A DNA stretch of 64,000 bases. Origin: a virus. Taxonomy: Duplodnaviria; Heunggongvirae; Uroviricota; Caudoviricetes. The position numbers and the translations under genes are program-made. The notes under the pieces were generated by a model. That model was not told the DNA's origin. It saw only the letters and a list, made by a program, of their open reading frames with translations, and searched no databases. This document shows positions 5,316 through 35,016 of this stretch, piece by piece; the first letter of the stretch is position 1; each line of letters starts with the position of its first letter. The stretch spans positions 32,749 to 96,748 of the IMG/VR virus record IMGVR_UViG_3300009285_000507. One strand, given 5' to 3'.

Positions 5316-5742
5316 CCATAGCCTCCGTCTTTTCCCTCTTAGCTATACGTGCTAGCTTGTCTAAGTCGAGGTTGCATAACTCCACACCAATTCTCTTGGC
5401 GCAGTACTTAATCATTGATACACTGTGCCTCTTGGTATAGTTATGCTTGAACTTAACTTTGTTTCCTTCTGCGTCCGTTGTTCCTTCCTCGTAATACTTA
5501 CGAGCAGCTTCTTTCATCTTTTTTAGATTAGCAGCTCGATACTTTTTTAGGTACTCTTTGATGCGCTCCGGATTTTTCTGTACACGCTCCCTGCTTTTCC
5601 TATTAAGACATCTCCTACACATCCTACCCCTTGTTTTATTCCTAGCCTTATAGTTACTTCTACGTTTAGGGAACTCTGTGTCTTCCTTCTCCTGTTTACA
5701 GTGAGGGCAATAAGTCATGATTACTCTCCGTCGTTCATCCAA
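5302..5742 (-). CDS. basic Cys-rich (zinc-ribbon-like) protein, paralog B
   Basis: CPHC...CRRCLN, a basic K/Y-rich middle and MIKYCAKRIGVELC tail parallel to paralog A. Confidence 0.5.
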   Translation of the reverse strand: MDERRRVIMTYCPHCKQEKEDTEFPKRRSNYKARNKTRGRMCRRCLNRKSRERVQKNPERIKEYLKKYRAANLKKMKEAARKYYEEGTTDAEGNKVKFKHNYTKRHSVSMIKYCAKRIGVELCNLDLDKLARIAKREKTEAMGGTI

Positions 5743-6461
5743 TAGTGCATATACTTGTCCGTCATCCAGTTCTCAACGAATTCATAGTCTGGCTCTGCTG
5801 GCAGCATTGTTGGGCATGTAGCAAGTTTGTTCTCATAGTCCAGGATAACCTCTGACACCTCACCGAGCTTAAGTGCTCCCTTTCTAATACCGCGTAGGAA
5901 CTTAGCATCAGGCTCAGCCATTGGCAGTGACAGCTTACCGCAAGATAACAGCTCCATCCCCTGTATACATAGACGAATGATATGGGATGCATATTTTGTG
6001 TCATAACCATACTTATCAACAAGCTCTGGTCTTGTTACATTGCGCTGGCCTCTTAGTCCCAGCATACGCTCGTGCTGCTGCCGTGCATAGCCCATAAACG
6101 GAGTCCTGATCTTTGCTGACACTATCTTACTGGCTAGGCCACGGAGCTCGTCACCCTCTGTTGTGCACTGGGTAATGAACTGTGTTGGGGCAAACAATGG
6201 AAGCAGTACTGACGGGTTACCGCCTAGAGCTAGGCGAAGGTACTTACGAAGCCCATAGGTTACACGGTCAACATCACCAGCCTCACTGCGAACACCCTCC
6301 GGCTTAGTACGCTCTACAATTGTACCCTTCCACTCAGCAAGGCCAATGAGCTTCTTCTTATCCTCAATGCAGACACCCATGTAGTCAGTGTCCTCAAGAC
6401 CATCATTGACAGCTATGCCATGAAGTGTTGAGCCAACTACTGTCTCAAGTATTGTAATCAT
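5721..6461 (-). CDS. Pol-beta superfamily nucleotidyltransferase (predicted)
   Basis: N-terminal GSTLHGIAVNDGLEDTDYMGVCIE fits the GS-x9-13-DxD nucleotidyltransferase signature. A roughly 150-aa helical C-terminal region follows. Confidence 0.55.
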   Translation of the reverse strand: MITILETVVGSTLHGIAVNDGLEDTDYMGVCIEDKKKLIGLAEWKGTIVERTKPEGVRSEAGDVDRVTYGLRKYLRLALGGNPSVLLPLFAPTQFITQCTTEGDELRGLASKIVSAKIRTPFMGYARQQHERMLGLRGQRNVTRPELVDKYGYDTKYASHIIRLCIQGMELLSCGKLSLPMAEPDAKFLRGIRKGALKLGEVSEVILDYENKLATCPTMLPAEPDYEFVENWMTDKYMHYWMNDGE

Positions 6462-6805: not shown

Positions 6806-8842
6806 CTAGATCTCCACCTCGTATTTGCCACAAAGGATAATCTTGTCGCCATCGAACTCAACTGGAACTCCATCGGCATAGCTTGTGCCAACCGTGAAGT
6901 CGGCAGTCATTGGCAGCTTCCAGCCCTTGACACTGATCTCCATGTTCTTCTTGACCATCTTTGCCAGCTCAAGGAAGCGGTTAGGATCAGCTGGCACGGA
7001 GAAGTTAAACTCGTCGTGCACACACAGAAGAAGCTTGATGTCTTCATTGGTCATGAGGACATTGTTGTGGATACGATGCAAGGCCAGCTTGGAGATGTCA
7101 GCTGCTGTACCCTGGATAGGCGAGTTAATAATGGTACGCATTGCATAACCACGCCTGTCCTCACTAGCCAAGTCCTCATGAACCCAACGCTGCCGTCCAA
7201 AGTATGTCTTGACGTACCCGCACTTCTTTGCCTTCACAACTTCTCCTGCGTTCCACTTCTTGATCTCAGGGTACACACTCCACCACTTGTCAACGATAAC
7301 CTGGGCCTCTTCACGTGAGATTCCAAGGTTAGACCCTACAGTGCCAGCCCCGCCACCATAAGCAACCGCAAAGTTAATGGTCTTAGCAATGGTACGATAC
7401 TTCTTCTTATCTGTTTCGTACTCCGCACCAAAGAGCATCTTTGCTGTCTCTTCATGGATGTCTAAACCATTCTGGATGAAGTCAACCATCTTGCAACCAG
7501 TTAGGTTTGCTATGAGGCGAATTTCTTGGGCAGCGAAGTCACCATGGAAGAACAGTTCTCCAGGTTTAGCTTTGATGGCATGGCGAATGGAGTTCTTAAG
7601 ACTCAGTGCCTCAAAGTCGTAGTCATCATCGTGACCTACATCCTTATAGCCATACCCGAAGATGGGACCACCCTTGATCAGCTTGTACCGTGTAGGAGGT
7701 GTCTTAGGCATGTTCTGGCAATTGATGCTGGCAAAGAAGCTATTGAGCTTGTCACCACCACCTGCAAGGCGACCAGTGGCAGCTTCAGTTACCTTGTAGT
7801 TAAAATACACCCCGCCATTGTGCTTCTCTGCTTCCTCAATGAACGTGTCAACGTAGGTTCCCATAAGCTTCTTGAGACCACGTACCTCAAGGATACTGGC
7901 AACGAACGGGTAGTCCTTCTGCAGCGGGACAAGTGCTGCCTCACCTGTTGACATTGAACCCTTGTCTGTAACCTGCCCAGTGTTGATCCCAAGCTTCTTG
8001 AATACCTCAATGAGCTGCTTGGTTGACCCAATATTAAACTTGGAGCCAGCTGACTCATAGATTGATTCTTCCAGACGTGCCATGCGGCTCTCAAGCTCAG
8101 GCTTGTAGCTCTTGAGCAGCTCAACGTCAACTGGGATGAGCCCCTCCTCCTCAACCATCAAAGGAAGCAGACAGGCATTGTCAAGGTCAACCACGGTCTT
8201 GAGCTGCTTCTCGTATAGACCCTTGAACATCTCCCAGATCTGGAACGTGGCAGCAGCATCCATGCTAGCGTAGGACACCACATCCTTTGAGTCAATGTAG
8301 GAGATATCATGTGAATCACCAACAACGTCCTCAAAGTTCTGAAACTTCCACTTGAGAATATTCTCCATACACCACTTGAGACCAAGACGTTTAACGTTTG
8401 TATCAGCGTTCCACACCAGGAGTTGTGTGTCGAAGTACTTAACCTTAAATGGATCAAGTCCGCTGGACTCCCTCAGTATACGCATGTCAAACCTTGCATT
8501 GAAGAACAGAACCTTTGAACTTGCATATAGCATCTTGTTAAAGAACTTGCTGAACTTATTGAAGTCAGTGAAGTTCTCACCGACCTTATGGGAGATCGGG
8601 ATGTAATATGCTTTGTCAAGAGTAAAGCATAGTGAGATGCCTACAAGGCCAGCAAGCTTATGATTAAGATCAGTGGTCTCTGTATCAATGGCAATGATAC
8701 GCTGAGCCTCAGGCAATGACATGTATTGCTTACACACAGCCTTAATGGAATCCTCATCCTTGAGCATAATATACTGGGTTTTATCTTGAGCAATGAGTGG
8801 CTTAAGATTCTTCAGGTACATCGGGGTGTACTTCGCAAACAT
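6806..8842 (-). CDS. DNA polymerase I family (Pol A) with 3'-5' exonuclease domain
   Basis: Exo I AIDTETTDL. Motif A DFAAQEIRL. Motif B RTIAKTINFAVAYGG. Motif C CVHDEF. Length 678 aa. Confidence 0.9.
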   Translation of the reverse strand: MFAKYTPMYLKNLKPLIAQDKTQYIMLKDEDSIKAVCKQYMSLPEAQRIIAIDTETTDLNHKLAGLVGISLCFTLDKAYYIPISHKVGENFTDFNKFSKFFNKMLYASSKVLFFNARFDMRILRESSGLDPFKVKYFDTQLLVWNADTNVKRLGLKWCMENILKWKFQNFEDVVGDSHDISYIDSKDVVSYASMDAAATFQIWEMFKGLYEKQLKTVVDLDNACLLPLMVEEEGLIPVDVELLKSYKPELESRMARLEESIYESAGSKFNIGSTKQLIEVFKKLGINTGQVTDKGSMSTGEAALVPLQKDYPFVASILEVRGLKKLMGTYVDTFIEEAEKHNGGVYFNYKVTEAATGRLAGGGDKLNSFFASINCQNMPKTPPTRYKLIKGGPIFGYGYKDVGHDDDYDFEALSLKNSIRHAIKAKPGELFFHGDFAAQEIRLIANLTGCKMVDFIQNGLDIHEETAKMLFGAEYETDKKKYRTIAKTINFAVAYGGGAGTVGSNLGISREEAQVIVDKWWSVYPEIKKWNAGEVVKAKKCGYVKTYFGRQRWVHEDLASEDRRGYAMRTIINSPIQGTAADISKLALHRIHNNVLMTNEDIKLLLCVHDEFNFSVPADPNRFLELAKMVKKNMEISVKGWKLPMTADFTVGTSYADGVPVEFDGDKIILCGKYEVEI

Positions 8843-9242
8843 GGATGCTCTTCTCCTTTATAAGCTTACAAGCTTGATTCATTGTAAGCTTCTTCAGCAA
8901 TACTTTCTTCTGTAAGTCCTTTATGAAATCCATATCCAGATCAACTTTGTCCAGCTTCTTCTCTTCTATTATTGTACCAAGTTTACCTGACTTCTTCAAC
9001 TGGAGGAATATATCTTTATCAGAGAACTCCATATGTCTAAGCATATCATAAGATCCGTAGACCCTGCGCTCAGCAAAGCAATACATGTTGTTAGCATCCT
9101 CGTAGAACTTCGCTGAGTTGTGGTTGTCATCATGGAAAGGGCACAGGAATACATTGTTACCATAAATCCTGACACCCAAGGATTCAAGTAGCTTCCTGGC
9201 AGAGAATACCTTGTCTACTATCTTTATGAGCCTAAGCTCCAT
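8802..9242 (-). CDS. stand-alone primase-type CHC2 zinc-finger protein
   Basis: CPFHDDNHNSAKF...YCFAE matches the DnaG/T7 gp4 CHC2 zinc-binding domain. Only 146 aa with no TOPRIM domain. Confidence 0.6.
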   Translation of the reverse strand: MELRLIKIVDKVFSARKLLESLGVRIYGNNVFLCPFHDDNHNSAKFYEDANNMYCFAERRVYGSYDMLRHMEFSDKDIFLQLKKSGKLGTIIEEKKLDKVDLDMDFIKDLQKKVLLKKLTMNQACKLIKEKSIHVCEVHPDVPEES

Positions 9243-9251
9243 GTCCTGTCC

Positions 9252-9426
9252 TCTACTTAATTATACCACGCATACCCTTGGTTGTTCTACGTCCCCTCTG
9301 TCTTTTCCATCCAGATATATGAGAAGTGTTATGCCATGTACCAAACAACTCTCCTGTCTCCATCTCGATAAATCTTAGTGCTCTCTCCTCGCTACGTGCT
9401 CTCTTACTCTTCTGCTGTCTTGACAT
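9252..9426 (-). CDS. small basic protein (58 aa), not in supplied ORF track
   Basis: Hand translation MSRQQKSKRARSEERALRFIEMETGELFGTWHNTSHISGWKRQRGRRTTKGMRGIIK. Sits between the primase-ZBD gene and tRNA-Trp. Confidence 0.25.
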
Positions 9427-9445
9427 AAACAGTTCCTTTTAAATG

Positions 9446-9518
9446 CGACTCGGCTGAGATTTGGACTCAGATTACCAGTGTTGGAGACTGGTGTGTTACC
9501 AGGTTACACTACCAAGTC
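9446..9518 (-). tRNA. tRNA-Trp (anticodon CCA)
   Basis: Reverse complement GACTTGGTAGTGTAACCTGGTAACACACCAGTCTCCAACACTGGTAATCTGAGTCCAAATCTCAGCCGAGTCG folds as a cloverleaf. Acceptor 7 bp with one GU. D stem GTGT/ACAC. Anticodon stem CCAGT/ACTGG with loop CTCCAAC. T stem CTGAG/CTCAG. Discriminator G. No CCA encoded. Confidence 0.7.
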
Positions 9519-10013: not shown

Positions 10014-10101
10014 TGGTGGACGATGATGGATTTGAACCACCGAGTTTAGCGCAAGGCACCTGATTTACAGTCAGGCGGCATCACCACTAGCCGAATCGTC
10101 C
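10014..10101 (-). tRNA. tRNA-Tyr (anticodon GTA), type II with long variable arm, CCA encoded
   Basis: Reverse complement GGACGATTCGGCTAGTGGTGATGCCGCCTGACTGTAAATCAGGTGCCTTGCGCTAAACTCGGTGGTTCAAATCCATCATCGTCCACCA. Acceptor GGACGAT/ATCGTCC. Anticodon stem CCTGA/TCAGG with loop CTGTAAA, as in bacterial tRNA-Tyr. T loop TTCAAAT. Confidence 0.75.
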
Positions 10102-10792: not shown

Positions 10793-10812
10793 TTGACTCT
10801 CCTGTTATTAAC

Positions 10813-10841
10813 ATTGTACTCCAGAGTATATCAGAAATAAA
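10813..10841 (-). promoter_or_regulatory. candidate promoter for minus-strand operon (-10 TACAAT)
   Basis: Minus-strand sequence GGAGTACAATGT resembles the recurring TAGTACAATGT motif, 21 nt upstream of the ATG at 10792. Confidence 0.35.
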
Positions 10842-10847
10842 GCAGAA

Positions 10848-10876
10848 TAGAAAACAAAGTGTGGTTGTGGTATAAT
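10848..10876 (+). promoter_or_regulatory. candidate promoter TAGAAA-N17-TGGTATAAT (extended -10)
   Basis: TATAAT at 10871-10876 preceded by TGG. TAGAAA sits at the -35 position. The ATG of the first plus-strand gene is at 10896, with a GAGGAT Shine-Dalgarno. Confidence 0.55.
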
Positions 10877-10895
10877 ATGTATAGAGGATAGGACT

Positions 10896-12095
10896 ATGAT
10901 CAAGACGCTTAGCACAACTGAAATTGAGACAATTGCGAGGCTCAATAATGTTGACCTAAGCCAGTGCCAGTCAATGCATGATAAGCTGTCCTGCGTTGTT
11001 ACAGATGAGCTGAACAGCCATCCAGAGCTAAGCTCCTACAAGAAGTACGCCCATCTGACTAGCCCAATGCTGTGCTACTCCTATTATGAGATGAACAAGA
11101 AATGCCAAGATGGTGTCTATGAGGATACTTGGGCATTTGAGTACAACATGGATGGACTACGTGGCTTTTTAGTGTATGACAGAGAAGGATTTAGTTTATT
11201 ACTCAGAGATAGAATAGGTAACGTATCTCTCCTACGTGAGACGGTAAATCCCAGGCTACCTTTGTTGCATAACCAACGCATCAAAGGTCTAGTGCTTGAT
11301 GTCAGAGTTGAGGTTGAGCTTATTGACCCATCAGAGATGGACAACAGGGTTAAAGGTACGTTCTCTGACATGTCTGAGTACACCAAGTTTATGCTTACAT
11401 GTGCTCCACGTAAAGTACGGTCCAAGGTAAATATACTTGACACACTCGTAGTTAATAGATCCTTGATAGCTAACAAGCCCTACATAGAGAGAACCCGCTA
11501 TACTGATGCTGTGTACAAGGATATGTGTCACTCACTTATACCGTGTATGGTTAGTAAGCGTTGCACCAAAAAAGAAGAAAAGTTATCCTTTGTATCAAAG
11601 GCGCACAGTTTAGGTTATAATGGTATCATAGCAAAGCAGTTATACAAATCGTACCTGAGCGACAACACTCGTAACAAGGGTGTCTGTGTTAAAAGAAAGC
11701 TCAGCTTCTCAGACATAACTGGAAGTGGTGTACTTGGTTACATTGATTCCCCTCTATATAATAAACATCATCACGTTAACGGCCTAAGAATCTATACGAA
11801 TGTATCAAATGGTGTACTGAAAAAAGATCAGTTTCTATGCACCCTAAAAGTTGGCAGAGAGCTAAGACATCTGTTCCAGGTTGAGACAAGTCACAAATGG
11901 TATGATTTCAACTGTGACTTAAAGGGATCAGTGATAGAGCTTGATGGCACCAAGTTCAAGACCAACGGTGAACTAGCGGATCCAGTATTTATCCGCATTG
12001 ATGAAGACAAGGTAAAGTCTGACTGCATCATAAATCAAAACTTCATGGATAGGTACAGAGATGAGCGACGAAAAAACTATAGACTACAAAGCTGA
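10896..12095 (+). CDS. ATP-dependent ligase/nucleotidyltransferase-like protein with substituted catalytic residues
   Basis: EYNMDGLRG resembles ligase motif I KxDGxR but has Asn in place of Lys. GLVLDVRVEV is motif III-like. YNGIIAK is motif IV-like with Asn for Glu. CVKRK is motif V-like. Length 399 aa. Confidence 0.4.
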   Translation: MIKTLSTTEIETIARLNNVDLSQCQSMHDKLSCVVTDELNSHPELSSYKKYAHLTSPMLCYSYYEMNKKCQDGVYEDTWAFEYNMDGLRGFLVYDREGFSLLLRDRIGNVSLLRETVNPRLPLLHNQRIKGLVLDVRVEVELIDPSEMDNRVKGTFSDMSEYTKFMLTCAPRKVRSKVNILDTLVVNRSLIANKPYIERTRYTDAVYKDMCHSLIPCMVSKRCTKKEEKLSFVSKAHSLGYNGIIAKQLYKSYLSDNTRNKGVCVKRKLSFSDITGSGVLGYIDSPLYNKHHHVNGLRIYTNVSNGVLKKDQFLCTLKVGRELRHLFQVETSHKWYDFNCDLKGSVIELDGTKFKTNGELADPVFIRIDEDKVKSDCIINQNFMDRYRDERRKNYRLQS

Positions 12096-15031: not shown

Positions 15032-16081
15032 ATGGCAGAAGAAAGTTATGAGGACATTTTTGGTTCAAGTGATGAGGTGGAGGAGAAGCCAGCTCCTAAG
15101 GCAGTTAAGAAAGCTGCTCCGGTAAAGGCTGCTCCTAAGGAAGAAGTTGTTGAAGAAGAGGAGGAAGAGCAGGATGCTTTTGTCGCTGCAGCTACAAAGA
15201 AGCCAGCTGCTCCTGCACCTAAGGCTAAGCCTGTGGTGTCTGATGATGTAGAGGATCTGAACTTCCTTGGCGCACAGACTAACGAGGCACATGATCTGTC
15301 CGCTGGCCAGGGTCCTTTGTACAAGTTCATGCAGTGGGTTGAGCCAGATCCTAAGGCTGCTATGGGTTCGTTTCAGAATCTAGGAGGTTTCTTTCTGCCT
15401 GAGGAACAGTTCCCCTTCGGCTTTACTCCATCACGTAAGCTCAATAAGATCACGTTCGACAATGGTAGCAGTCAGGTTGGTCTAGGCTTCCCGAAGATTA
15501 TGGTGTCAATCATTGGCTACCGTCTTGACTGGTTCTCAAAGGGTGGGGACAAGCGCACCTTCTACAAGAGCTACGACGAGGGTATCAAGGATGCTGGTAA
15601 GAAGAATCTCCGTGGTCGTACCCGCTATGTCGTTCTTGTTAAGAACGAGGATCTGTGGAAGTATGGTCCTTTGATGATCACTGTATCAGGCATTAAGGGT
15701 CGTACACTGCAGTCGGCTGTGAGTAGCTATGACACAAATCTTCGTCGTACACTTGAGCGCAAGTTTAGCCGCAAGTTTGCACCATACTGTTTCTGGTGCC
15801 CACTGAAGCCAGGTGAGCGTGTCAAGATCTCTGAGGAGTACAACAAGTATGCAACCTCACCGGCATTGGCATTGCCTGAGAAGTTTGACGCTGTGGAGAT
15901 TGGTAAGAAAGCATTTGTTGGCAAGGAAGTAATTGAGGCTTGTGAGGGTTATTGGGATGAGGTTCAGGAGTGGTCCAAGGCTAGTACAAGCGGTGACCAT
16001 GGCGAGCCACAGATGGCCCTTGCTGAAGAGGTTGTAAAGGAAGAAGCACCCAAGAAGCTTGAAGAGTTCTTTGAGGAATAA
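15032..16081 (+). CDS. DNA-binding protein candidate with AKP-rich N-terminus and acidic aromatic C-tail (possible SSB-like)
   Basis: N-terminal KPAPKAVKKAAPVKAAPKEE histone-H1-like low complexity. C-terminus EEAPKKLEEFFEE resembles the acidic tails of phage SSBs. Sits among recombination genes. Confidence 0.35.
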   Translation: MAEESYEDIFGSSDEVEEKPAPKAVKKAAPVKAAPKEEVVEEEEEEQDAFVAAATKKPAAPAPKAKPVVSDDVEDLNFLGAQTNEAHDLSAGQGPLYKFMQWVEPDPKAAMGSFQNLGGFFLPEEQFPFGFTPSRKLNKITFDNGSSQVGLGFPKIMVSIIGYRLDWFSKGGDKRTFYKSYDEGIKDAGKKNLRGRTRYVVLVKNEDLWKYGPLMITVSGIKGRTLQSAVSSYDTNLRRTLERKFSRKFAPYCFWCPLKPGERVKISEEYNKYATSPALALPEKFDAVEIGKKAFVGKEVIEACEGYWDEVQEWSKASTSGDHGEPQMALAEEVVKEEAPKKLEEFFEE

Positions 16082-16111
16082 AACGGTACTACTGTACCAA
16101 AGGAGAATACA

Positions 16112-16399
16112 ATGGCAGAAAATGTTCAGAAGCGTACATTAGCAGACGCAGTTGCAGAGAAGCTAAGTGCAGACAAGTCTCAGACTCTGGCGGTTATTGA
16201 TTGCTTCATGGAACTTATGATGGAGCATCTAAAAGAAGGCAACACCCTGGAGTTCCGTAACTTTGGTGTATTCAAAGTAAAGAAGTATGAGGCTCGTAAG
16301 GGTCGTAACCCCAAGACTGGTGAATCAGTTGAGATCCCAGCACGTTCAAAGGTTTCATTCCGTCCAGGTAAAGTCATGAAAGAGATGTTCACCAAGTAA
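16112..16399 (+). CDS. HU/IHF-family histone-like DNA-binding protein
   Basis: 95 aa. RNFGVFKVKKYEARKGRNPKTGESVEIPARSKVSFRPGK matches the HU arm (GRNPxTGExxxIPA). Confidence 0.85.
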   Translation: MAENVQKRTLADAVAEKLSADKSQTLAVIDCFMELMMEHLKEGNTLEFRNFGVFKVKKYEARKGRNPKTGESVEIPARSKVSFRPGKVMKEMFTK

Positions 16400-16408
16400 G
16401 GAGATACT

Positions 16409-17407
16409 ATGGCAAAGAAGAGTGCTGACACTATTAGTAAGAGTGGGGCTGATATCTACAAGAAGATGGCTGCTAAGTACCCATCCCGTCTACAGTGCAG
16501 ACGTATTCCTTTGACGGACAAGGCACTGAATGATGGCTTCGGTGGTGGTTACCCAATGGCCAAGCAGGTTATGTTATACAGCCGTGAGGGTGTTGGTAAA
16601 ACAAACGTAGCCCTTGCCATCTGTAAGGCATATTGTGACGCTGGTTATGCTGTGGTCTACATGGACTTCGAGAACTCTCTAGTTGAGTCATTGATTGAGA
16701 ATTTCGGTCTTACTCAGTATGAGGGTACCCTGTTCTTTCTTCACCAGGATGTCCATACTTACACGGACTTCCAGAACATGGCAGATGCATATCTGGACAT
16801 GGAGAATCTTGGACTCATTGTTATTGATAGCGAATCTGACATTGTACCGGATCAGGTTTGCGACGGTGACATCCAGGATATCCAGCCAGGTTTGAAGTCA
16901 CGGCTGACATCAAATATTCAGATGAAGTACAACAGTCAGTGGCGTAGTCGTGACATTGGTATCCTGTGGATCCAGCAGATGCGGGCCAAGTTTAACTTTG
17001 GCTTCGCTCCTCCTGGGGCTCGTACAGAGGAAGCAGCTGGGGCAAAGTCACTGAAGTTCGCTCTTGATGTTCAGGTAGAACTACGTGTTAAGAAGCAGCT
17101 ATCACACGCAGATACAACTGTGTATGGTGCAGACATTTCATTCATCTTTGACAAGAACAAGACGGCACCACGTAAGAAGGTTGAGTCAACTATTATCTAT
17201 GGTCATGGCTTTGATCCACTTGCGTCACTGACAGCTGCACTGACTGAGTTCGGGTACTTGAAGCAGGACGAAAAGCTTTACGAGCTGCACTGCTTGCTTG
17301 AAGACAAGATCATTAAGTTTAAGAGTAGGACTGCTTTGTACAAGTACTTTAATGACAACATGAACAAGATTCTAGATCTGCTGAAAGAGAAGCACGGAGT
17401 AGAGTAG
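16409..17407 (+). CDS. RecA/UvsX-family recombinase
   Basis: GGGYPMAKQVMLYSREGVGKT gives the Walker A in RecA context. VYMDFENSL parallels RecA AFIDAEHAL. Length 332 aa. Confidence 0.6.
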   Translation: MAKKSADTISKSGADIYKKMAAKYPSRLQCRRIPLTDKALNDGFGGGYPMAKQVMLYSREGVGKTNVALAICKAYCDAGYAVVYMDFENSLVESLIENFGLTQYEGTLFFLHQDVHTYTDFQNMADAYLDMENLGLIVIDSESDIVPDQVCDGDIQDIQPGLKSRLTSNIQMKYNSQWRSRDIGILWIQQMRAKFNFGFAPPGARTEEAAGAKSLKFALDVQVELRVKKQLSHADTTVYGADISFIFDKNKTAPRKKVESTIIYGHGFDPLASLTAALTEFGYLKQDEKLYELHCLLEDKIIKFKSRTALYKYFNDNMNKILDLLKEKHGVE

Positions 17408-18471
17408 TGCTTAAAGTATTCATCAAGGACTTTCAAATCATCGGTCAGACCAGGCTTGATATAGATGGTCTGACCTTTCTGGTTGGTTCTGGCGATAACG
17501 GTAAGTCCTCAGTTGTAAGAGCTATGCAGTATGGGATATACAACAAGCTCGGTGATGACTTCATTAGGCAGGGTGTTAACGGTTGCAGCGTAGCACTAAA
17601 GTTTAATGATGACTTTAAGTTCGCTTGGAAGAAGTCTAGGGGTAAGGGTGGAGAGTACCTTCTTCCAAGCGGTGAATACGGAAAGCTTGGGAAGTCTGAT
17701 TTTGAGGGTGTTGTTGAGGAAGGACTGCTCCCTCTAACCACAAGTGTGGGTGATTTCTACCTTAACTTCTGGAACCAGATGGAGCAGTTCCTTGTTGTAA
17801 ATCGCCCAGACACGCATAAGTTCGAGATACTCTCCAGTATATTCTCTGGAGAGAAATACCAGGAGATGCTCAAAAAGGTTGGGGATGATCTAAAGGCAGT
17901 TCAGAAAGCATGCTCTAATGAGTATATGAAGAAGGAGATGCTATCAGGGTATGTAGCTTCAAGCACTGATAAGCTGCAGTTGTTCTCTGATATTGATAGC
18001 ATAAAAAATGAGGTAAGCAAGCTCTCTATGTCTGTAGACAGACTTGACACAATGAGTAGCTTATTGGAAAGACACACTACTACTGAGGGTAAGCTTTCCT
18101 CAATGACTGACACGGCTGCAACATGTACAAAGATAGTTAGTTTCTTTGTTAAGAAGCAGGGTGTTGTAGTTGAGGATATTGACGAGTTAAAGAATATTGA
18201 TTCAAAGTATAGATTGGTACTTAAAGCCAGGGATCTTAGAAACTCCATTAAAAGGCTGGAGGAATACTGTAGTGCTGCGAGTGTGAAGCTGGTTGTGAGC
18301 AAGTCAGATGTGGATAAATGTGCACAGATGGAATCATTACTACAACTAAGAAAAGTAAAGCTAGTCACTATATCAGCGATGTCTTCCAAGTTAGAGGATA
18401 CTTTGTTTAAACTCAAAGAGGAAGAAGCTGTTAAGAGCGAATTTGACACATGTCCATTCTGCGGAAAATAG
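17407..18471 (+). CDS. sbcC: SbcC/Rad50-like ATPase, N-terminal half ending at a CxxC zinc hook
   Basis: FLVGSGDNGKSSVVRAM is a Walker A in the Rad50/SbcC N-lobe context. A long coiled-coil region follows. The ORF terminates with CPFCGK, the hook motif. Confidence 0.6.
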   Translation: MLKVFIKDFQIIGQTRLDIDGLTFLVGSGDNGKSSVVRAMQYGIYNKLGDDFIRQGVNGCSVALKFNDDFKFAWKKSRGKGGEYLLPSGEYGKLGKSDFEGVVEEGLLPLTTSVGDFYLNFWNQMEQFLVVNRPDTHKFEILSSIFSGEKYQEMLKKVGDDLKAVQKACSNEYMKKEMLSGYVASSTDKLQLFSDIDSIKNEVSKLSMSVDRLDTMSSLLERHTTTEGKLSSMTDTAATCTKIVSFFVKKQGVVVEDIDELKNIDSKYRLVLKARDLRNSIKRLEEYCSAASVKLVVSKSDVDKCAQMESLLQLRKVKLVTISAMSSKLEDTLFKLKEEEAVKSEFDTCPFCGK

Positions 18472-18486
18472 ATTAGGAGCTATAAA

Positions 18487-18750
18487 ATGAATTTACAGGA
18501 ACGCTACCTAAGGTGCAGTGAGAACATCGAGGAGCTAAAGCGTAAGTCTGTTGAGTACGAGACACGCAAGAAGTCTCTTGAGGCAGAGCTGAAAGACATT
18601 GATGCTGAGATTAACAGTATTGGCTTATCCCCAGAGACACTCCAGAAGCAGTACGAGGATCTTAAGAAAAAGATTGAGGCTAGGATGGCAGTTCTTGAGG
18701 AGAACCTCAAACAGGCTGCTGCCAAGATAGCCGGTGAAGAGGAAGACTAA
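18487..18750 (+). CDS. coiled-coil protein (87 aa)
   Basis: Own AGGAG Shine-Dalgarno; heptad-rich sequence between the two SbcC halves. Confidence 0.45.
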   Translation: MNLQERYLRCSENIEELKRKSVEYETRKKSLEAELKDIDAEINSIGLSPETLQKQYEDLKKKIEARMAVLEENLKQAAAKIAGEEED

Positions 18751-19142
18751 TGGTTGTCAGAAGAAAGTTCGAGTCACTTAAGGACGCAATAGCAAGTGTA
18801 AAGTGTCCTTCCCAGAAGTTTGTTAAGCTAAACATCTGGTGCAGTAACAAGGGCCTTGATCTATTTCTTACCAAGACTGACGATGGGATGTGTGTTGTGC
18901 AGGTGTTAACTCGTGAGGAGTTCAAGCGGATCATCTTCATGAAGAAGATAAACATGCTTGACTATGATTTAAACACTACTATAACAAGTATTGCTGACAA
19001 CATAGAGATGAACTACAGCTATTACATTAGGGTTGTTAGCAGGGCCAAGGCTGACTTTATAGCCTCAACTGCTTTCCCTGTGGTTGTGTTCTTCAGTGGA
19101 AATGTTGCGAAGTACAGTGAGGGCTCAATCTATGTTGAGTAA
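18750..19142 (+). CDS. hypothetical protein (130 aa) inserted between SbcC halves
   Basis: Translationally coupled to the upstream gene (TAATGG). Not coiled-coil, no motif. Confidence 0.4.
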   Translation: MVVRRKFESLKDAIASVKCPSQKFVKLNIWCSNKGLDLFLTKTDDGMCVVQVLTREEFKRIIFMKKINMLDYDLNTTITSIADNIEMNYSYYIRVVSRAKADFIASTAFPVVVFFSGNVAKYSEGSIYVE

Positions 19143-19791
19143 GCGTCTCCAGGCTATATCTGATTCAGTGAACAGATTGGATGGGGAGAGAGATTCCTTA
19201 GTTAAGTCGATTGAATCATTCGTTGAGTCCATTGCTGAATGTGACAGCAACATAAGCACACTTGAGACAGACCTTAAAGTACTTGGCACAAGCATGGAGA
19301 TACTAAAAGAGTTCATCAGTATCCTATCAACATATGGTTTAAGCCAGTACACTGAGTTGATTAACCGTGGTCTAAAGACTATCTTTGTAGACAGAAACTA
19401 CGAGTTCAAGATCGAGATTGACAACAGGGGTAGAACAAAGAAAGCAACCATGCTTTCACGAAGGGAAATTGATGGGGAGTGGTGTGACTGGAGAAACATT
19501 GACCACGCGAACGGTGGAACACTACGTGCTATAATTGACCTAATAACAAGGGTTTATCTAATTAGCTCAATGGGCCGTAGGCGGTTCATAGTGTTTGATG
19601 AGTCACTGTCTCAGATGTCTGAGGAGTACGTTCCCAATGTAATTAGCTTCCTTGAGGTTCTCTCAAAGGAGATGGGTTTCGACATACTGTTCCTTAGCCA
19701 GGATCCAAGATACATAGGGCATGCTAACAGAGCGTACAAGATGTCCTGGGGTAACGCAGTTCTACTAGAGACAGAGGCTAGCAATGGATAA
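19084..19791 (+). CDS. sbcC: SbcC/Rad50-like ATPase, C-terminal half
   Basis: Coiled-coil. GGTLRAII is signature-like. Walker B IVFDESLSQM. H-loop LSQDPRYIGHANRAY. The in-frame ATG at 19132 (MLSKRL) is a plausible true start. Confidence 0.6.
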   Translation: MCSSVEMLRSTVRAQSMLSKRLQAISDSVNRLDGERDSLVKSIESFVESIAECDSNISTLETDLKVLGTSMEILKEFISILSTYGLSQYTELINRGLKTIFVDRNYEFKIEIDNRGRTKKATMLSRREIDGEWCDWRNIDHANGGTLRAIIDLITRVYLISSMGRRRFIVFDESLSQMSEEYVPNVISFLEVLSKEMGFDILFLSQDPRYIGHANRAYKMSWGNAVLLETEASNG

Positions 19792-20701
19792 AATAGCCAT
19801 TATTGGTGACCTTCATATAGATCAGAAAGCCCCTGCATCGCGCAAGGATGACTATACACGAACGTTGTTCTCAAAGCTGGACCAAGTATACTCCATAGCT
19901 CATACGAACAACTGCAGTGCCATTGTGTGCACTGGTGACGTATTCAACAGGAAGACCATATCCATCCCATTCCTTGTTGAGGTTATTGATTTCTTCAAGA
20001 AACATGCAGACGAGGATAAAGATCTACTATTCTATTCTGTGGCTGGTAATCACGACCTATACTATGGGAGAGCAGACTCCCTATTTAAGACACCACTAGG
20101 TGTTCTGTTCTCCTCAGGTGCCATTAAACACGGTGTCATCACCACAACTTATGGTAGTACGATATCCTGTATTGACTATGACAGAGCACCACAAGACAAG
20201 ATTACTCTTGAATCAGACATTACAGCTATGCACAAGTACATGCATAGTGACTACAAGAGTGATGAAGATTACGTTGATTACAAAGCCATAGAGGGTTGTG
20301 GTGTTATAGCGTGTGGTCATGATCACAATAGCTATGAACCAGTAAGTCATAAAGGTAAGATACTTGTTCGTCCTGGGTCTCTCATGAGGTGCACCAGCAG
20401 TATTGAGGACCAGCAGAGGGAGATAGTAGTTGATATTATTGGGGTTGAAAATAAGGGATCCAGAGTAGTATCATATATAGACAGGGTTAGATTAGATATT
20501 GAGCCTTGCGAGAACATATACTCAGAGCAGAAGTTGGCAAGCAAGGAGTACAAGAAGGGTCTTATCTCGTTCATTGAGGATATGAAGAAGGCACCCAGCA
20601 AGAGGGGTGACTCCGTTAAGATACTGAAGGATCTGTGCAAAGGAAACAAGGTTCTATATGATACCTGTTCTGAGTATCTGAGAACATACAGTATCATATA
20701 A
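19784..20701 (+). CDS. sbcD: SbcD/Mre11 nuclease (calcineurin-like phosphoesterase)
   Basis: Motifs IIGDLHID, TGDVFN, GNHD and GHDH in canonical order. Length 305 aa. Confidence 0.85.
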   Translation: MDKIAIIGDLHIDQKAPASRKDDYTRTLFSKLDQVYSIAHTNNCSAIVCTGDVFNRKTISIPFLVEVIDFFKKHADEDKDLLFYSVAGNHDLYYGRADSLFKTPLGVLFSSGAIKHGVITTTYGSTISCIDYDRAPQDKITLESDITAMHKYMHSDYKSDEDYVDYKAIEGCGVIACGHDHNSYEPVSHKGKILVRPGSLMRCTSSIEDQQREIVVDIIGVENKGSRVVSYIDRVRLDIEPCENIYSEQKLASKEYKKGLISFIEDMKKAPSKRGDSVKILKDLCKGNKVLYDTCSEYLRTYSII

Positions 20702-20712
20702 CAGGAGAGGAC

Positions 20713-21396
20713 ATGGTTTCAGATGAAGAAGCCAAGAAGTACTGGGGGAAATCTCGTCCAGTACAGGATTTCAATAGTAACTTTAATGAGGCACACTACT
20801 GGGTGGAGTACCTGAAAGCTAGGAAGAACAGGTGCATCAGGGTTGGTGTGGATAAGCTTGATGGGTTCTCAACAGACTCAAGAGACTACCCATTGTTCAT
20901 TATACCCATGTTCTTTATGAATGAGCATATTGGTTTTCAGCTGCGTTCAATAAAGACGGACAGGAGAATGATAGTAAAGAGCTGTGGCTTCATCTGTTAC
21001 ACACCTGACAGGTTGAGAGCTACACTCATGAAAGGAAATGTAGCAAGAATTCCTTACATGGTTCTGTCAGAAGGTCCTATGGATTCTGAGGTTATAGAGG
21101 AGCAGGTTACGTACTCTATGGCTTGTTGTGGTTCACTGCCATCCAGGAATCTTCTGAAGGCACTTTCAGTGTTCACAAGTAAGATTATTTTTATCCCTGA
21201 TAATGATGAAACTGGTAGAGAGCAGGGGGAAAGATTTGAAAAGTATGTTAGTAAGGTGGTAGAATACAGTAGGGTTGGGGTTATCTACCCTGATAAAAGA
21301 GTTAAGGACTTTGGTGACTTGGCACGTAGAAAGTATATTGGAATACGAAGAGAGCTACTAGACAGTCTTCAAACTAAACTGGAGGTATTGATATGA
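20713..21396 (+). CDS. DnaG-type primase catalytic (TOPRIM) domain protein
   Basis: MVLSEGPMDS supplies the TOPRIM Glu. FIPDNDETGREQGERF supplies the DxD. Length 227 aa. No Zn finger and no helicase domain. Confidence 0.6.
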   Translation: MVSDEEAKKYWGKSRPVQDFNSNFNEAHYWVEYLKARKNRCIRVGVDKLDGFSTDSRDYPLFIIPMFFMNEHIGFQLRSIKTDRRMIVKSCGFICYTPDRLRATLMKGNVARIPYMVLSEGPMDSEVIEEQVTYSMACCGSLPSRNLLKALSVFTSKIIFIPDNDETGREQGERFEKYVSKVVEYSRVGVIYPDKRVKDFGDLARRKYIGIRRELLDSLQTKLEVLI

Positions 21397-21641
21397 GCAA
21401 TGCAGAGAGTGCACCTATTGAGGTAGAGACAGAGGAGCTTGTGAAATTCATCAAGGATAACGCTGATGATATTCGTAAGCATATGGTAAGCAAGGAACTT
21501 AGTAAGATTAACTGCAAGAAGTGCAATGCAACTGGTGTGTATGGCTACTCTAAGGGTAAGCCAATTGTGTGCAGTTGTGTGTACAAGGTTTACAAGAGTC
21601 TCAACCCAGTTATTGAGCCGGTTATTGAGGCAAAGATCTAG
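21393..21641 (+). CDS. small zinc-ribbon protein (82 aa)
   Basis: CKKCNATG...CSCV; overlaps neighbours by 4 nt on each side. Confidence 0.45.
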   Translation: MSNAESAPIEVETEELVKFIKDNADDIRKHMVSKELSKINCKKCNATGVYGYSKGKPIVCSCVYKVYKSLNPVIEPVIEAKI

Positions 21642-32703: not shown

Positions 32704-35016
32704 ATGCATGTGCGTAAGATTCTAATCATTGGCGATTCTCCGGCTCAACACACAGGGTTCTCAAACCAGATCAGACTAATTGCAAACGGGTTCATTAACA
32801 ATGGTAGCGAGGTTGTGTCCATTGGGTTCAATGCAAAGGACCAAGGTATCTCAATGTTCCAGCCACATTGGAAGCTATATGGTGTGAAGGGTACAAGTGA
32901 GTACCACGAGATCTATCACATCATTCTTGTTGAGCAGCCAGATGTAATTATTTCAGTTGCTGAGTTTAGCTGGACAATGGATATTGCAAAGCTGCCTGAG
33001 AAGTGGCGTAACCGTTGTATTCACTGGGTGGCGGTTGACTGCGAGCCAATCAATGAGCCTGCAGTTCATAGCCAGATCTGGTTCCGTAAGCATCTTGTAT
33101 TCATGGCTGATTATGGCAAGAGAATATATAGCACGTATTTAGATAAACATCCTAATGAGCACACTGTTTCAACTATTTATCTGGGTGTTGATACTGAAGT
33201 GTTCAAGCCTGTAGCAGACAAGAAGGAGCTTAAGAAGAAGGGTGGCTTCGAGGACAAGTTTGTAGCACTATTTGTTTCGCGTAACCAGTGGAGAAAGCGT
33301 CCTGATCTTCTTATTCGTGCGTGGGCTAAGTTCGTAAAAGACAAGAAGGATGCAGTTCTTATTATGCACACTGACGTGAGTACTGTGTCAACTAATCTTC
33401 AGACAGGGTACAACCTTCCTTACCTGATTGAACGTTTTGGTGTGAAGGACTCATGTGGTCTATCAAGTAAGCTGCAGTGCTCCACAGAAGAACTGGTCAG
33501 CCTAATGAACATGGCAGATGTACATTGTTTGCCATCAGCGTCAGAAGGATTCGGAGTAACACTGATTGAGACAATGGCATGTGGTGTTGTCAATATCACT
33601 ACCAAGAGCTCAACTATGCCTGAGATCATTGACAACCATGGAGTTCTTATTGATCCAATTGCCTTTGACATCCAGCCAGACCTTGGTGTTGATCGTCCAT
33701 TGATGGACACGGACAAAGCAGCTGAAGCACTCGAGGTGATGTACCAGACATGGAAGAACAATGTTTCCATTGAAGAAGAAAAGACTGCGATGCGTGAGTA
33801 CATCATTGCAAAGTATAGTGCACCAGTAATTCAGAAGCAGTGGGTTGATTTGGTTGAGAATATAGTTTGTGTAGAAAATGAGCCAAGAGGGTGTTTTATT
33901 GGTAGTACGGCTCGTAGCATTCTTATCCAGGGTAATGATAGCCCAACATTCTCTTACGGAGTAGTGTGCAGGGCACTAGCTGAGGAGTTCAGCAAACGTG
34001 GGTATGTTGTAGAGCACACTAACTTCACAGTGGATCACTGGAACCAGAACAAGGAGCTAGCACGTACAGCATGCTACAATAGCTATGCACACCGTAACTT
34101 TGATTACCACCTGAGAGTATCCTATCCACTAGACAGTAAGCTTATGGTTGGTCGGACAAATGTAAATCTTGTTCCTTATGAATGGCAGAACCTTCCTAAG
34201 TCGTGGGTCCAGGAATCATGGAACCCAGGTTTGCACTATGTTATGCCTTTGTCCAAGCATGAGGAGTTTGTATTCACTGGCTCAGGTGTTCCAAAAGAAA
34301 AGGTTAAAGGCATGGGTCTGGGGTACAACCAGTCAGTGTTCAACACTGATGCCACGCCACATGATTTCTCTGACATCAAGAAAGATACATTTGTAATCCT
34401 TATGCTTGGTAGTCTAATGTCAGTTGATAGCCGCAAGGGTGTTAGCTATGTTCTGGATGCATATACAAAAGCATTTAGCAAGTCAGACAATGTTGCCCTT
34501 GTTATCAAGACACTGCAGGCTCCTAACATGCCTAACTTTGTGCAGCAGGTTCGGCAGCACATGCAGGGCAAGGAGAATTATCCGCGCATTACTGTGATGG
34601 ATTCATTCATGCCACAGGAAGCTATCGCTGGGTTGTACAAGAGGGCCAATGTAGTAGTTAGTCCCAACCGTGGAGAAGGGTTCAACCTATGCGCTCTTGA
34701 GGCTATGGCTGTAGGTACACCAGCTATTATCACAGCCGGTGGTGGTAGTATGGATTTCACTTCAAAGGATACAAGTTACTTGGTAACCTGCAGCACAGTT
34801 GCTTGTGGAGCTCCAGCATACATTGATGCAAAGGATACAGACAATGGCTGGTTCAATCTTCAGCCAAGTATGGACTCACTTGTAGCTCATATGCGTAACT
34901 CGTATGATGATCGTGAGACACTGAAGAAGAAGTCAGAGGCTGGTATTAAGAAGGCTCAGATGTTTACATGGGGTGCTGCAGTCAGAGCCTTCGAACTTAT
35001 GGTTGGTGCTGCATAA
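32704..35016 (+). CDS. tandem GT4-family (GT-B fold) glycosyltransferase, 770 aa
   Basis: Two complete units, each ending in the GT4 E-x7-E region (SEGFGVTLIETMACGV and GEGFNLCALEAMAVGTP). Each has a preceding Rossmann-like half (FVALFVSRNQWRKRPDLL and FVILMLGSLMSVDSRKG). Confidence 0.7.
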   Translation: MHVRKILIIGDSPAQHTGFSNQIRLIANGFINNGSEVVSIGFNAKDQGISMFQPHWKLYGVKGTSEYHEIYHIILVEQPDVIISVAEFSWTMDIAKLPEKWRNRCIHWVAVDCEPINEPAVHSQIWFRKHLVFMADYGKRIYSTYLDKHPNEHTVSTIYLGVDTEVFKPVADKKELKKKGGFEDKFVALFVSRNQWRKRPDLLIRAWAKFVKDKKDAVLIMHTDVSTVSTNLQTGYNLPYLIERFGVKDSCGLSSKLQCSTEELVSLMNMADVHCLPSASEGFGVTLIETMACGVVNITTKSSTMPEIIDNHGVLIDPIAFDIQPDLGVDRPLMDTDKAAEALEVMYQTWKNNVSIEEEKTAMREYIIAKYSAPVIQKQWVDLVENIVCVENEPRGCFIGSTARSILIQGNDSPTFSYGVVCRALAEEFSKRGYVVEHTNFTVDHWNQNKELARTACYNSYAHRNFDYHLRVSYPLDSKLMVGRTNVNLVPYEWQNLPKSWVQESWNPGLHYVMPLSKHEEFVFTGSGVPKEKVKGMGLGYNQSVFNTDATPHDFSDIKKDTFVILMLGSLMSVDSRKGVSYVLDAYTKAFSKSDNVALVIKTLQAPNMPNFVQQVRQHMQGKENYPRITVMDSFMPQEAIAGLYKRANVVVSPNRGEGFNLCALEAMAVGTPAIITAGGGSMDFTSKDTSYLVTCSTVACGAPAYIDAKDTDNGWFNLQPSMDSLVAHMRNSYDDRETLKKKSEAGIKKAQMFTWGAAVRAFELMVGAA

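Follow-up and report, generated by a model that had tools for sequence, protein, structure and literature searches.

A predicted three-piece Rad50 encoded beside an Mre11-like nuclease in a tailed phage, with the same division in other phages and in Bacillota

The mechanisms of Rad50 and SMC proteins are usually explained through a continuous coiled-coil hairpin, with hook-head signalling and a closed ring. Here, we examined a locus that lacks this continuity. It lies in a 64,000-nucleotide (nt) stretch of tailed-phage DNA (Caudoviricetes; IMG/VR record IMGVR_UViG_3300009285_000507, positions 32,749 to 96,748), hereafter called the window, in which a homologue of the ATPase SbcC/Rad50 is split at its zinc hook into separate genes. 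The question raised by this locus is whether the split marks a broken gene, a protein that is rejoined, or a machine that works in pieces. An earlier reading made from the letters of the DNA (hereafter the sequence-only reading) had favoured a genuine multi-subunit Rad50 over a frameshifted pseudogene, and this view was strengthened by an identical second assembly, the Rad50-like character of both halves, and the retention of the split in divergent relatives. We put the probability at about 0.8 that the window encodes a functional Rad50/Mre11-type DNA-end-processing complex, in which a Rad50 of three separately translated polypeptides would act together with a nuclease; this estimate draws on sequence comparison and structural models.

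Rad50-like halves, a terminal hook and an Mre11-like partner

The module consists of a recA-like gene, the N piece, an 87-amino-acid (aa) open reading frame (ORF), a 130-aa ORF, the C piece and an Mre11-like nuclease gene, in this order (Table 1), and the ORF map agrees base for base with the hook-split SbcC/Rad50 homologue that had been described. Each piece was also said to have its own start with a Shine-Dalgarno (SD) site or to be translationally coupled, and SD sites as well as overlapping stop and start codons were indeed found, with a purine-rich SD sequence 6-8 nt 5' of each start in the module. The GTG start of the N piece, preceded by GGAG 7 nt upstream, overlaps the TAG stop of the recA-like gene. 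As had been noticed, the N-lobe and ascending helices end exactly at the hook: the N piece reads ...DTCPFCGK at its terminus, directly followed by TAG. The 87-aa ORF (hereafter the mid) begins 15 bases past this end and has AGGAG 7 nt upstream of its start; the start of the 130-aa ORF is coupled to the mid stop by a TAATG overlap. The C piece starts at the ATG at 19132, not at the TTG at 19084, which gives an 11-nt overlap with the 130-aa ORF, and the ATG of the Mre11-like gene overlaps the C-piece stop (ATGGATAA overlap), indicating translational coupling.

The window proteins alone gave weak matches in Pfam, while the N piece matched an 'exonuclease' family in PHROG (1e-14). A profile of six N pieces found M. 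jannaschii Rad50 as its best match in the PDB (3aux, E 4e-12). Further Rad50 entries ranked next and SMC, RecN and RecF after these, and there were also weak matches to Rad50 hook fragments. The AlphaFold model of the N piece, based on a 138-sequence alignment, has a predicted local distance difference test score (pLDDT) of 87.9 and contains helices at residues 149-192, 194-289 and 299-344; its best Foldseek match in the PDB is the N chain of P. furiosus Rad50 (8e-6). The ascending helical region of the window N piece amounts to ~195 aa. In the model, residues 289-298 are non-helical and interrupt this region ~56 aa before the hook, and a 46-residue helix follows; across the N family, Gly and Pro are enriched 55-65 aa before the hook. 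Among the 138 aligned N pieces, K33 and G27 are invariant, and N120, F121 and Q124 as well as the zinc-hook residues C349, P350 and C352 are at least 90% conserved. The CPFC hook at aa 349-352 is predicted to bind zinc. A C-x-x-C motif, nearly always CPxC, is located 0-33 aa from the C-terminus in 137 of the 152 N-family sequences, and the remaining 15 are mostly truncated fragments. The hook, 2 aa past which the N piece stops, is thus not at the apex of a continuous antiparallel coiled-coil of one polypeptide, and this holds family-wide.

The C piece matched an 'ATPase' family in PHROG (2e-12), the profile of which is merely 211 residues long; this was the first hint of stand-alone C pieces elsewhere. 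As a single-sequence query the C piece found only itself, and relatives came within reach only with a profile built from six C pieces. The best PDB match of this profile was the C segment of P. furiosus Rad50, expressed as a chain of its own (3qkr_B, E 1.1e-6), spanning arm base, signature, Walker B and H-loop. The AlphaFold model of the C piece (119-sequence alignment) has a pLDDT of 84.8; Foldseek returned SMC and Rad50 C chains from the PDB (4e-6 to 1e-5), and the matches in BFVD were led by stand-alone viral proteins of 193-219 aa with template-modelling (TM) scores of 0.65-0.83. The Walker B pair D156-E157 is invariant in the aligned C pieces. The sequence-only reading had assigned a descending coiled-coil, a signature-like GGTLRAII, a Walker B IVFDESLS and an H-loop to this protein. 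A descending helix, NGGTLRAII and FIVFDE were found, but an H-loop His was not: the window C piece has Gln (LSQDP) at the H-loop position and is the sole one without His among the 119 aligned C pieces. Its signature reads A-N-G-G-T (19507-19521), compared with S-R-G-G-G in the family. Overall, both halves look like Rad50 lobes by profiles and by AlphaFold/Foldseek, and the comparison named beforehand as a test of the split came out in its favour, each half matching Rad50 lobes best in the PDB.

Directly after the C piece, where SbcD/Mre11 had been expected, lies an overlapping gene for a metallophosphoesterase with Mre11 motifs. This protein matches Metallophos in Pfam (5.7e-14), an SbcD-like family in PHROG (2e-11) and sbcd in NCBIfam (2.4e-5). 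Full-length homology links it to the nuclease of the bacterial operon described below (3e-16), to the N-terminal domain of gp8 of Bacillus phage 0305phi8-36 (3e-13) and to the nuclease of the related phage locus L005 (6e-24). Being adjacent, coupled and homologous to the nucleases of related modules, it qualifies as the cognate nuclease of the ATPase.

Table 1 Features of the Rad50/Mre11-like module and their positions in the window.
Feature	Position	Strand	Remarks
RecA/UvsX-like recombinase	16409..17407	+	Pfam RecA 1.2e-24; PHROG UvsX-like 7.7e-29
Rad50-N piece, 354 aa	17407..18471	+	ABC (ATP-binding cassette) N-lobe, ascending helices, C-terminal zinc-hook motif
Walker A GSGDNGKS of N piece	17485-17508	+	
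Q-loop Q124 of N piece	17776-17778	+	
CPFC zinc-hook motif	18451..18462	+	2 residues short of N-piece C-terminus
Mid ORF, 87 aa	18487..18750	+	Helix / Gly turn (IGLSPETL) / helix
130-aa ORF	18750..19142	+	Placed at mid/C junction
Rad50-C piece, 219 aa	19132..19791	+	Descending helix (aa 2-84) and ABC C-lobe
Signature-like NGGT of C piece	19510-19521	+	
Walker B FIVFDE of C piece	19585-19602	+	
Gln at H-loop position, C-piece residue 190 (LSQDP)	19699-19701	+	
Mre11/SbcD-like metallophosphoesterase, 305 aa	19784..20701	+	Motifs DLH, GDVFN, GNHD, GHDH

The same split in other phages and in Bacillota

If the split were a working arrangement, it might be expected in related phages, and the same split was seen in divergent ones. 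The detectable N-piece homologues are all 353-431 aa long. In the loci L001, L003, L004 and L005, a CPxC-ending N piece is followed by a helical ORF of 82-105 aa, by no or one unrelated small ORF, and by a C piece of 208-220 aa; RecA is often upstream and an Mre11-like gene downstream. The relatives that share the split are only 20-33% identical. No close relative of the window phage was present in 50,697 phage records. The region had no megablast match in phage genomes, and no relatives emerged when IMG/VR was scanned with the back-translated N and C pieces.

Bacillus phage 0305phi8-36 is the sole cultured relative by tblastn. Its gp8 consists of an Mre11 domain fused to a Rad50-N piece ending in ...CPTC plus 20 aa; gp7 (92 aa) is its mid, gp6 has 238 aa, and gp5, a 236-aa 'ATPase', is its C piece. 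Yoshida, Claverie and Ogata (2011; PMC3175470) listed gp8 among the Mre11-Rad50 fusions (Mimivirus R555 group) and reported that one P-loop segment of the Bacillus phage protein 'was not observed', without giving its location. Judged from sequence similarity, the segment missing from gp8 is encoded apart from it, by gp5, and gp7 corresponds to the mid. Although gp8 is homologous to the window N piece, the window nuclease is unfused. In the B. cereus prophage phBC6A51, BC1852 ('SbcC') is a 518-aa N piece with CPLC near its end, BC1853 is an insert, BC1854 is a 77-aa mid, BC1855 is a 'chromosome segregation ATPase' of 211 aa, and BC1857 is 'SbcD'.

Looser arrangements also occur. In the uncultured 485-kb phage LR745208, other genes separate N, mid and C, which are scattered over 8 kb (L093, LR745208.1 449500-461000: N at 1122-2489, ~4.7 kb of other ORFs, the mid within 7232-7621, a 377-aa ORF, and C at 8758-9393). 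At the far left of the linear record of Microbacterium phage Magritte (L092, 1-934), a 96-aa gene 1 is followed by gene 2, a C-piece homologue called 'exonuclease'; presumably, the N piece lies at the opposite genome end. In L001 (6001-8542), and likewise in L002, the hook CPCCGQ is on a separate 57-aa ORF, and the C piece is extended by ~150 aa at its N-terminus and apparently frameshifted just past Walker B, which may represent either further fragmentation, or decay or an assembly error.

The same genes form an operon in bacteria. In the core chromosome of Halalkalibacter krulwichiae, the order is cinA, a helicase gene, recA, an Mre11-like gene (329 aa), the N piece (475 aa, ending in CPTC plus 13 aa), the mid (82 aa), the C piece (221 aa), rny, ymdB and spoVS; the general pattern is Mre11-like (~330 aa), N (~480 aa, CPTC), mid (~82 aa) and C (~221 aa). 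With one genome per species and bacterial C pieces as the query, C-piece relatives were found in 407 species genomes; 80 loci were fetched, and the full order of Mre11-like gene, hook-bearing N piece, mid and C piece was present in ~70 of these 80 bacterial species loci. Carriers include Halalkalibacter, Alkalihalobacillus, Shouchella, Halalkalibacterium halodurans, Thermoactinomycetaceae and Tepidanaerobacter. Among the operon loci (L007 5339-8666; L011-L090), those of alkaliphilic Bacillaceae stand between recA and rny, immediately after recA, and recA is upstream of the module in L001, L004, L007 and most bacterial loci. The bacterial junctions are 8-11 nt long, in different frames, and without insert. 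Against NCBIfam Rad50, the bacterial homologues scored 1.4e-16 (N) and 3.7e-7 (C, at positions 682-894 of 895), while for the mid and C proteins no Pfam or NCBIfam model reaches its cut-off.

In a search of 1.84 billion cluster representatives, the N-piece profile matched 681 clusters at E<1e-30; the best 150 of these are end-to-end matches, none longer than 475 aa. The C-piece profile matched 252 proteins, many of them from Bacillota genomes and ~210-kb phage-like contigs, and the best 120 are all 166-247 aa. No unsplit protein was present among these best 150 N-profile or best 120 C-profile matches. These comparisons indicate that the split is ancient, widespread and family-wide, and that the window phage is a divergent member of a large family, not a unique case. 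The same cut in many phages and in hundreds of Bacillus-type bacteria thus points to a working design rather than a broken gene.

The 87-aa ORF had been described as an independent helical ORF with its own SD site, which is correct; furthermore, it belongs to a conserved family. Six phage mids can be aligned from one end to the other, and all have a Gly at the same place within a helix-cap motif (IGLSPETL, FGVKTEEE, LGVKPEDL). When a hidden Markov model (HMM) of 55 bacterial mids was compared with the 371 window ORFs, the 87-aa ORF was the sole significant match (E 3.7e-5; next-best ORF, E 0.85), and with five phage mids added to the HMM it was aligned end to end at E 9.8e-10. The median ratio of nonsynonymous to synonymous substitution rates (dN/dS) of bacterial mid genes is ~0.05, which means that these orthologues are under strong purifying selection. 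The length of the mid is nearly constant (77-105 aa), its invariant Gly is at position 46-47, and a post-hook tail of 6-32 aa on the N pieces precedes it. Taken together, the 87-aa ORF is predicted from sequence to be a conserved third subunit, making this an ATPase in three pieces, not two. The break and the Gly/Pro enrichment ~55-65 aa before the hook of the N piece, together with the Gly at 46-47 of the mid, give a matched discontinuity on two strands, and we infer from the alignments and models that the mid is the hook-proximal descending strand of the arm.

Alternatively, the complex may be real and the mid an accessory or adaptor protein rather than an arm strand, e.g., a hook cap, an Mre11 bridge, or a kleisin- or Nbs1-type subunit. 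Its near-constant length and hairpin-like helix-Gly-helix design would suit such a role, as would the other genes that stand between hook and mid in phBC6A51, L003 and LR745208; moreover, the helical region of the N piece varies by >100 aa, which would be unexpected if the mid simply paired with it. However, the mid is encoded immediately after the hook in most loci, its Gly and the discontinuity on the ascending strand are roughly equally far from the hook, and the hook-proximal 46-aa helix of the N piece would be left unpaired without it. In NCBIfam, the mid also matches the descending-arm regions of Rad50/SMC, although these matches are weak (E ~1e-3) and of low complexity. On balance, an adaptor role is a serious contender that we nevertheless consider unlikely, and an arm strand is preferred.

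Damage, recoding, splicing and inserted genes

The simplest alternative to a working split is a decaying SbcC/Rad50 pseudogene that was interrupted by nonsense or frameshift mutations, or by sequencing errors. The locus does have features of this kind, because the N piece, mid and C piece are all in frame 1, the gap between N piece and mid (18469-18489) is just TAG plus five codons (IRSYK), and the relative L001/L002 has an apparent frameshift in the Walker B region. Against this, the independently assembled ENA contig ERZ27254805 shows 100% identity across 7660 nt and the same five gene calls, and at least 23 contigs encode the exact C-piece protein. Errors of sequencing or assembly are therefore not the cause of the interruptions, and independent assemblies retain the same stops, as a test set beforehand had asked. 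An SD site or start is present for every piece, the break points are identical in the 20-33%-identity relatives and in >400 bacterial species, and the mid is under strong purifying selection. In every other related locus, N, mid and C lie in differing frames or overlap, so their common frame here is probably a coincidence. The pseudogene explanation is already effectively refuted, and we give it hardly any weight.

Could a single polypeptide still be restored, by read-through or recoding of TAG, by a self-splicing intron, or by trans-splicing of a split intein? Such a restoration is suggested by the lone TAG between the N piece and the mid in one frame, and by mobile elements in the modules of relatives (the group I intron of L004 and the HNH_3 ORF between N piece and mid in L003). 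Recoding or read-through of TAG was ruled out by stop usage, tRNA content and the differing frames elsewhere. TAG is the commonest genuine stop, closing 35 of the 77 non-overlapping window ORFs in tightly packed genes, and no suppressor tRNA was found in the window with ARAGORN, which returned only tRNA-Trp(CCA) and tRNA-Tyr(GTA). Frame 1 is packed with stops from mid to C, and the bacterial junctions of 8-11 nt are in different frames. An intron as the cause of the split was rejected, since no Rfam intron matched in 16000-21500 even at E<=1. An intein was likewise rejected: there was no Pfam intein match, the N piece ends in CPFCGK, and the mid and C pieces begin directly in helices. With the N piece ending 2 aa past the hook and the C piece beginning in a helix, there is no space for intein halves. 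A restored single chain is thus very improbable, and separate translation of the three pieces is favoured. Apart from this, a rare TAG read-through at 18469-18489 would join the N piece to the mid.

The unrelated 130-aa ORF that had been noticed between the pieces was confirmed as such, having no match in Pfam, PHROG, NCBIfam or PADLOC and no similarity to the ORFs at the same junction in other loci; when compared with each other, the insert ORFs of different loci proved not to be homologous. Nothing is inserted at the mid/C junction of L004 or of any bacterial locus, and both the N/mid and mid/C junctions gather unrelated genes. The 130-aa ORF is probably, on this sequence evidence, a lineage-specific passenger at a permissive, variable junction and not a part of the ATPase. 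Inserts and introns of relatives were also observed. In L003 (7277-7967), a KTSC-domain ORF and an HNH_3 homing-endonuclease-like ORF are located between N piece and mid. In L004, the Mre11-like gene consists of exons at ~8255-8487 and ~9074-9490, and a group I intron interrupts it at 8488-8758 (Rfam RF00028, 59.2 bits, E 3e-14).

Phage 'genes in pieces' that arose through mobile elements include the T4 topoisomerase gp39/gp60 and the NrdA of Aeromonas phage Aeh1, split by mobE; these splits are recent and lineage-restricted and have unsplit close relatives. The Rad50 split resembles them in its separately translated enzyme fragments, in the unrelated ORFs at its junctions (HNH in L003) and in the nearby intron (L004). 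It differs from them in being ancient, family-wide and insert-free in bacterial operons, and its 130-aa ORF lacks endonuclease similarity. In the window module, an endonuclease-like 130-aa ORF, an intron, and an unsplit protein among the best N- and C-profile matches were all looked for as marks of a mobile-element split, and none was found.

As for the surroundings, the portal, protease and major capsid genes are at 37.7-43 kb, and the window belongs to a ~139-kb tailed phage. Neighbouring genes encode an RlaP-like nucleotidyltransferase (5721-6461, -), a family A DNA polymerase with 3'-5' exonuclease (6806-8842, -), an ATP-dependent DNA ligase (10896-12095, +) and an HU-like protein (16112-16399, +). 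The tRNA-Trp(CCA) and tRNA-Tyr(GTA) genes (9445-9518 and 10014-10101, -) lie just inside the leftward gene block. Gene orientation changes from - to + between 10792 and 10896, at the cumulative GC-skew minimum, which makes ~10800-10900 a candidate replication origin or divergent promoter region.

A proposed hook-ended machine and its meaning

How could such a divided protein work? In the proposed machine, the ascending helices of the N piece would pair antiparallel with the helix of the C piece (aa 2 to ~60) near the head and with the mid near the hook. This pairing would unite the two ABC lobes without a covalent link and so reconstitute the ABC head, and two complexes may be held together by one Zn2+ shared between their C-terminal CPFC motifs. 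By binding and hydrolysing ATP, this head would then gate the Mre11-like nuclease on DNA ends, and the processed ends would be handed to the adjacent recombinase, serving recombination-dependent replication and the repair of the phage genome. The 130-aa ORF would be a passenger inserted at an insertion-tolerant junction.

It is common practice to assemble the catalytic domain of Rad50 from its N and C segments as two chains, and the two-chain Rad50 entries of the PDB (1f2t, 1ii8, 3qkr, 9a9j) show that a non-covalent head is feasible. The window pieces match the A and B chains, respectively, of such engineered proteins (1F2T/1F2U, 1II8, 3QKR, 9A9J), in which N and C are likewise separate chains. 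These are, however, laboratory truncations without most of the arm and the hook, whereas the natural split keeps both and adds a third chain. Compared with Rad50-Mre11, SbcC-SbcD and T4 gp46-gp47, the module shares a predicted two-lobe ABC head, the long helical arms, the CxxC hook motif, a calcineurin-fold nuclease encoded alongside, and the linkage to a RecA-family recombinase. In contrast to them, it has three polypeptides instead of one, a hook at a free C-terminus instead of a hairpin apex, ascending and descending arms of unequal length and, in the window phage, Gln for the H-loop His.

Several observations weigh against the machine proposed here. The helical region of the N piece ranges from ~195 aa in the window to ~310 aa in bacteria, while the mid and the C helix together amount to ~150 aa throughout, which leaves bacterial N pieces with ~160 aa of ascending arm in excess; a simple 1:1 antiparallel arm is therefore impossible for the longer members, in which part of the arm must be folded on itself or paired intermolecularly. 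The fragmentation and apparent Walker B frameshift of L001/L002 suggest that decay occurs in some lineages. In addition, the H-loop Gln and the degenerate signature of the window C piece suggest altered hydrolysis kinetics, and hydrolysis may be slow or otherwise changed. The wider claim, namely that there is a large class of Bacillota and phage Rad50 machines whose arm is closed non-covalently by a hook-ending N piece, a small helical subunit and a C piece, with an Mre11-like partner, is in our view evenly poised between right and wrong.

Another explanation is that the module is not a repair Rad50 but a Rad50-like SMC conflict system, similar to LmuB of Lamassu or to OLD/Gabija, serving defence or counter-defence. 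The LmuB models of PADLOC do match the N piece (4.7e-6) and a bacterial N piece (5e-19), and Lamassu is thought to derive from SbcCD (PMC12663957). However, the matches of the window N piece to LmuB profiles are weak, no LmuA- or LmuC-like gene was found, and the best matches in the PDB and NCBIfam are Rad50. The partner is an Mre11/SbcD-type phosphoesterase with intact catalytic motifs. In the phage, the module is within the replication/recombination block, between the RecA-like gene and the primase, and in bacteria it is in the core region from recA to rny, ymdB and spoVS instead of a defence island. A conflict system is thus improbable, and DNA-end processing remains the favoured function.

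In full-text literature searches, outside which lies the main ABC-ATPase classification, no split, fragmented or bipartite Rad50/SbcC was found, and a prior description is possible; the jumbo-phage and Lamassu papers, including PMC12663957, do not mention the arrangement. The three-piece variant is apparently undescribed. Proteins that carry names such as 'Exonuclease SbcC', 'hypothetical protein' and 'chromosome segregation ATPase' in phBC6A51, 0305phi8-36 and hundreds of Bacillota can now be read as one machine, which also explains the 'missing' ATPase segment of the 0305phi8-36 Mre11-Rad50 fusion. The ~82-aa and ~220-aa proteins merit family models in annotation pipelines. The results also point to an unstudied, putative repair operon of four genes beside recA in alkaliphilic Bacillaceae and Thermoactinomycetaceae.

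Overall, a natural cut at the hook, and a second one within the predicted descending strand, offers a ready-made test of whether Rad50 needs a continuous arm. If the proposed machine is true, Rad50 would be able to function without a covalently continuous chain at the hook, and a free-ended arm could serve as an openable gate or permit subunit exchange, while the recA-linked bacterial operon would be an uncharacterised system for double-strand-break repair.

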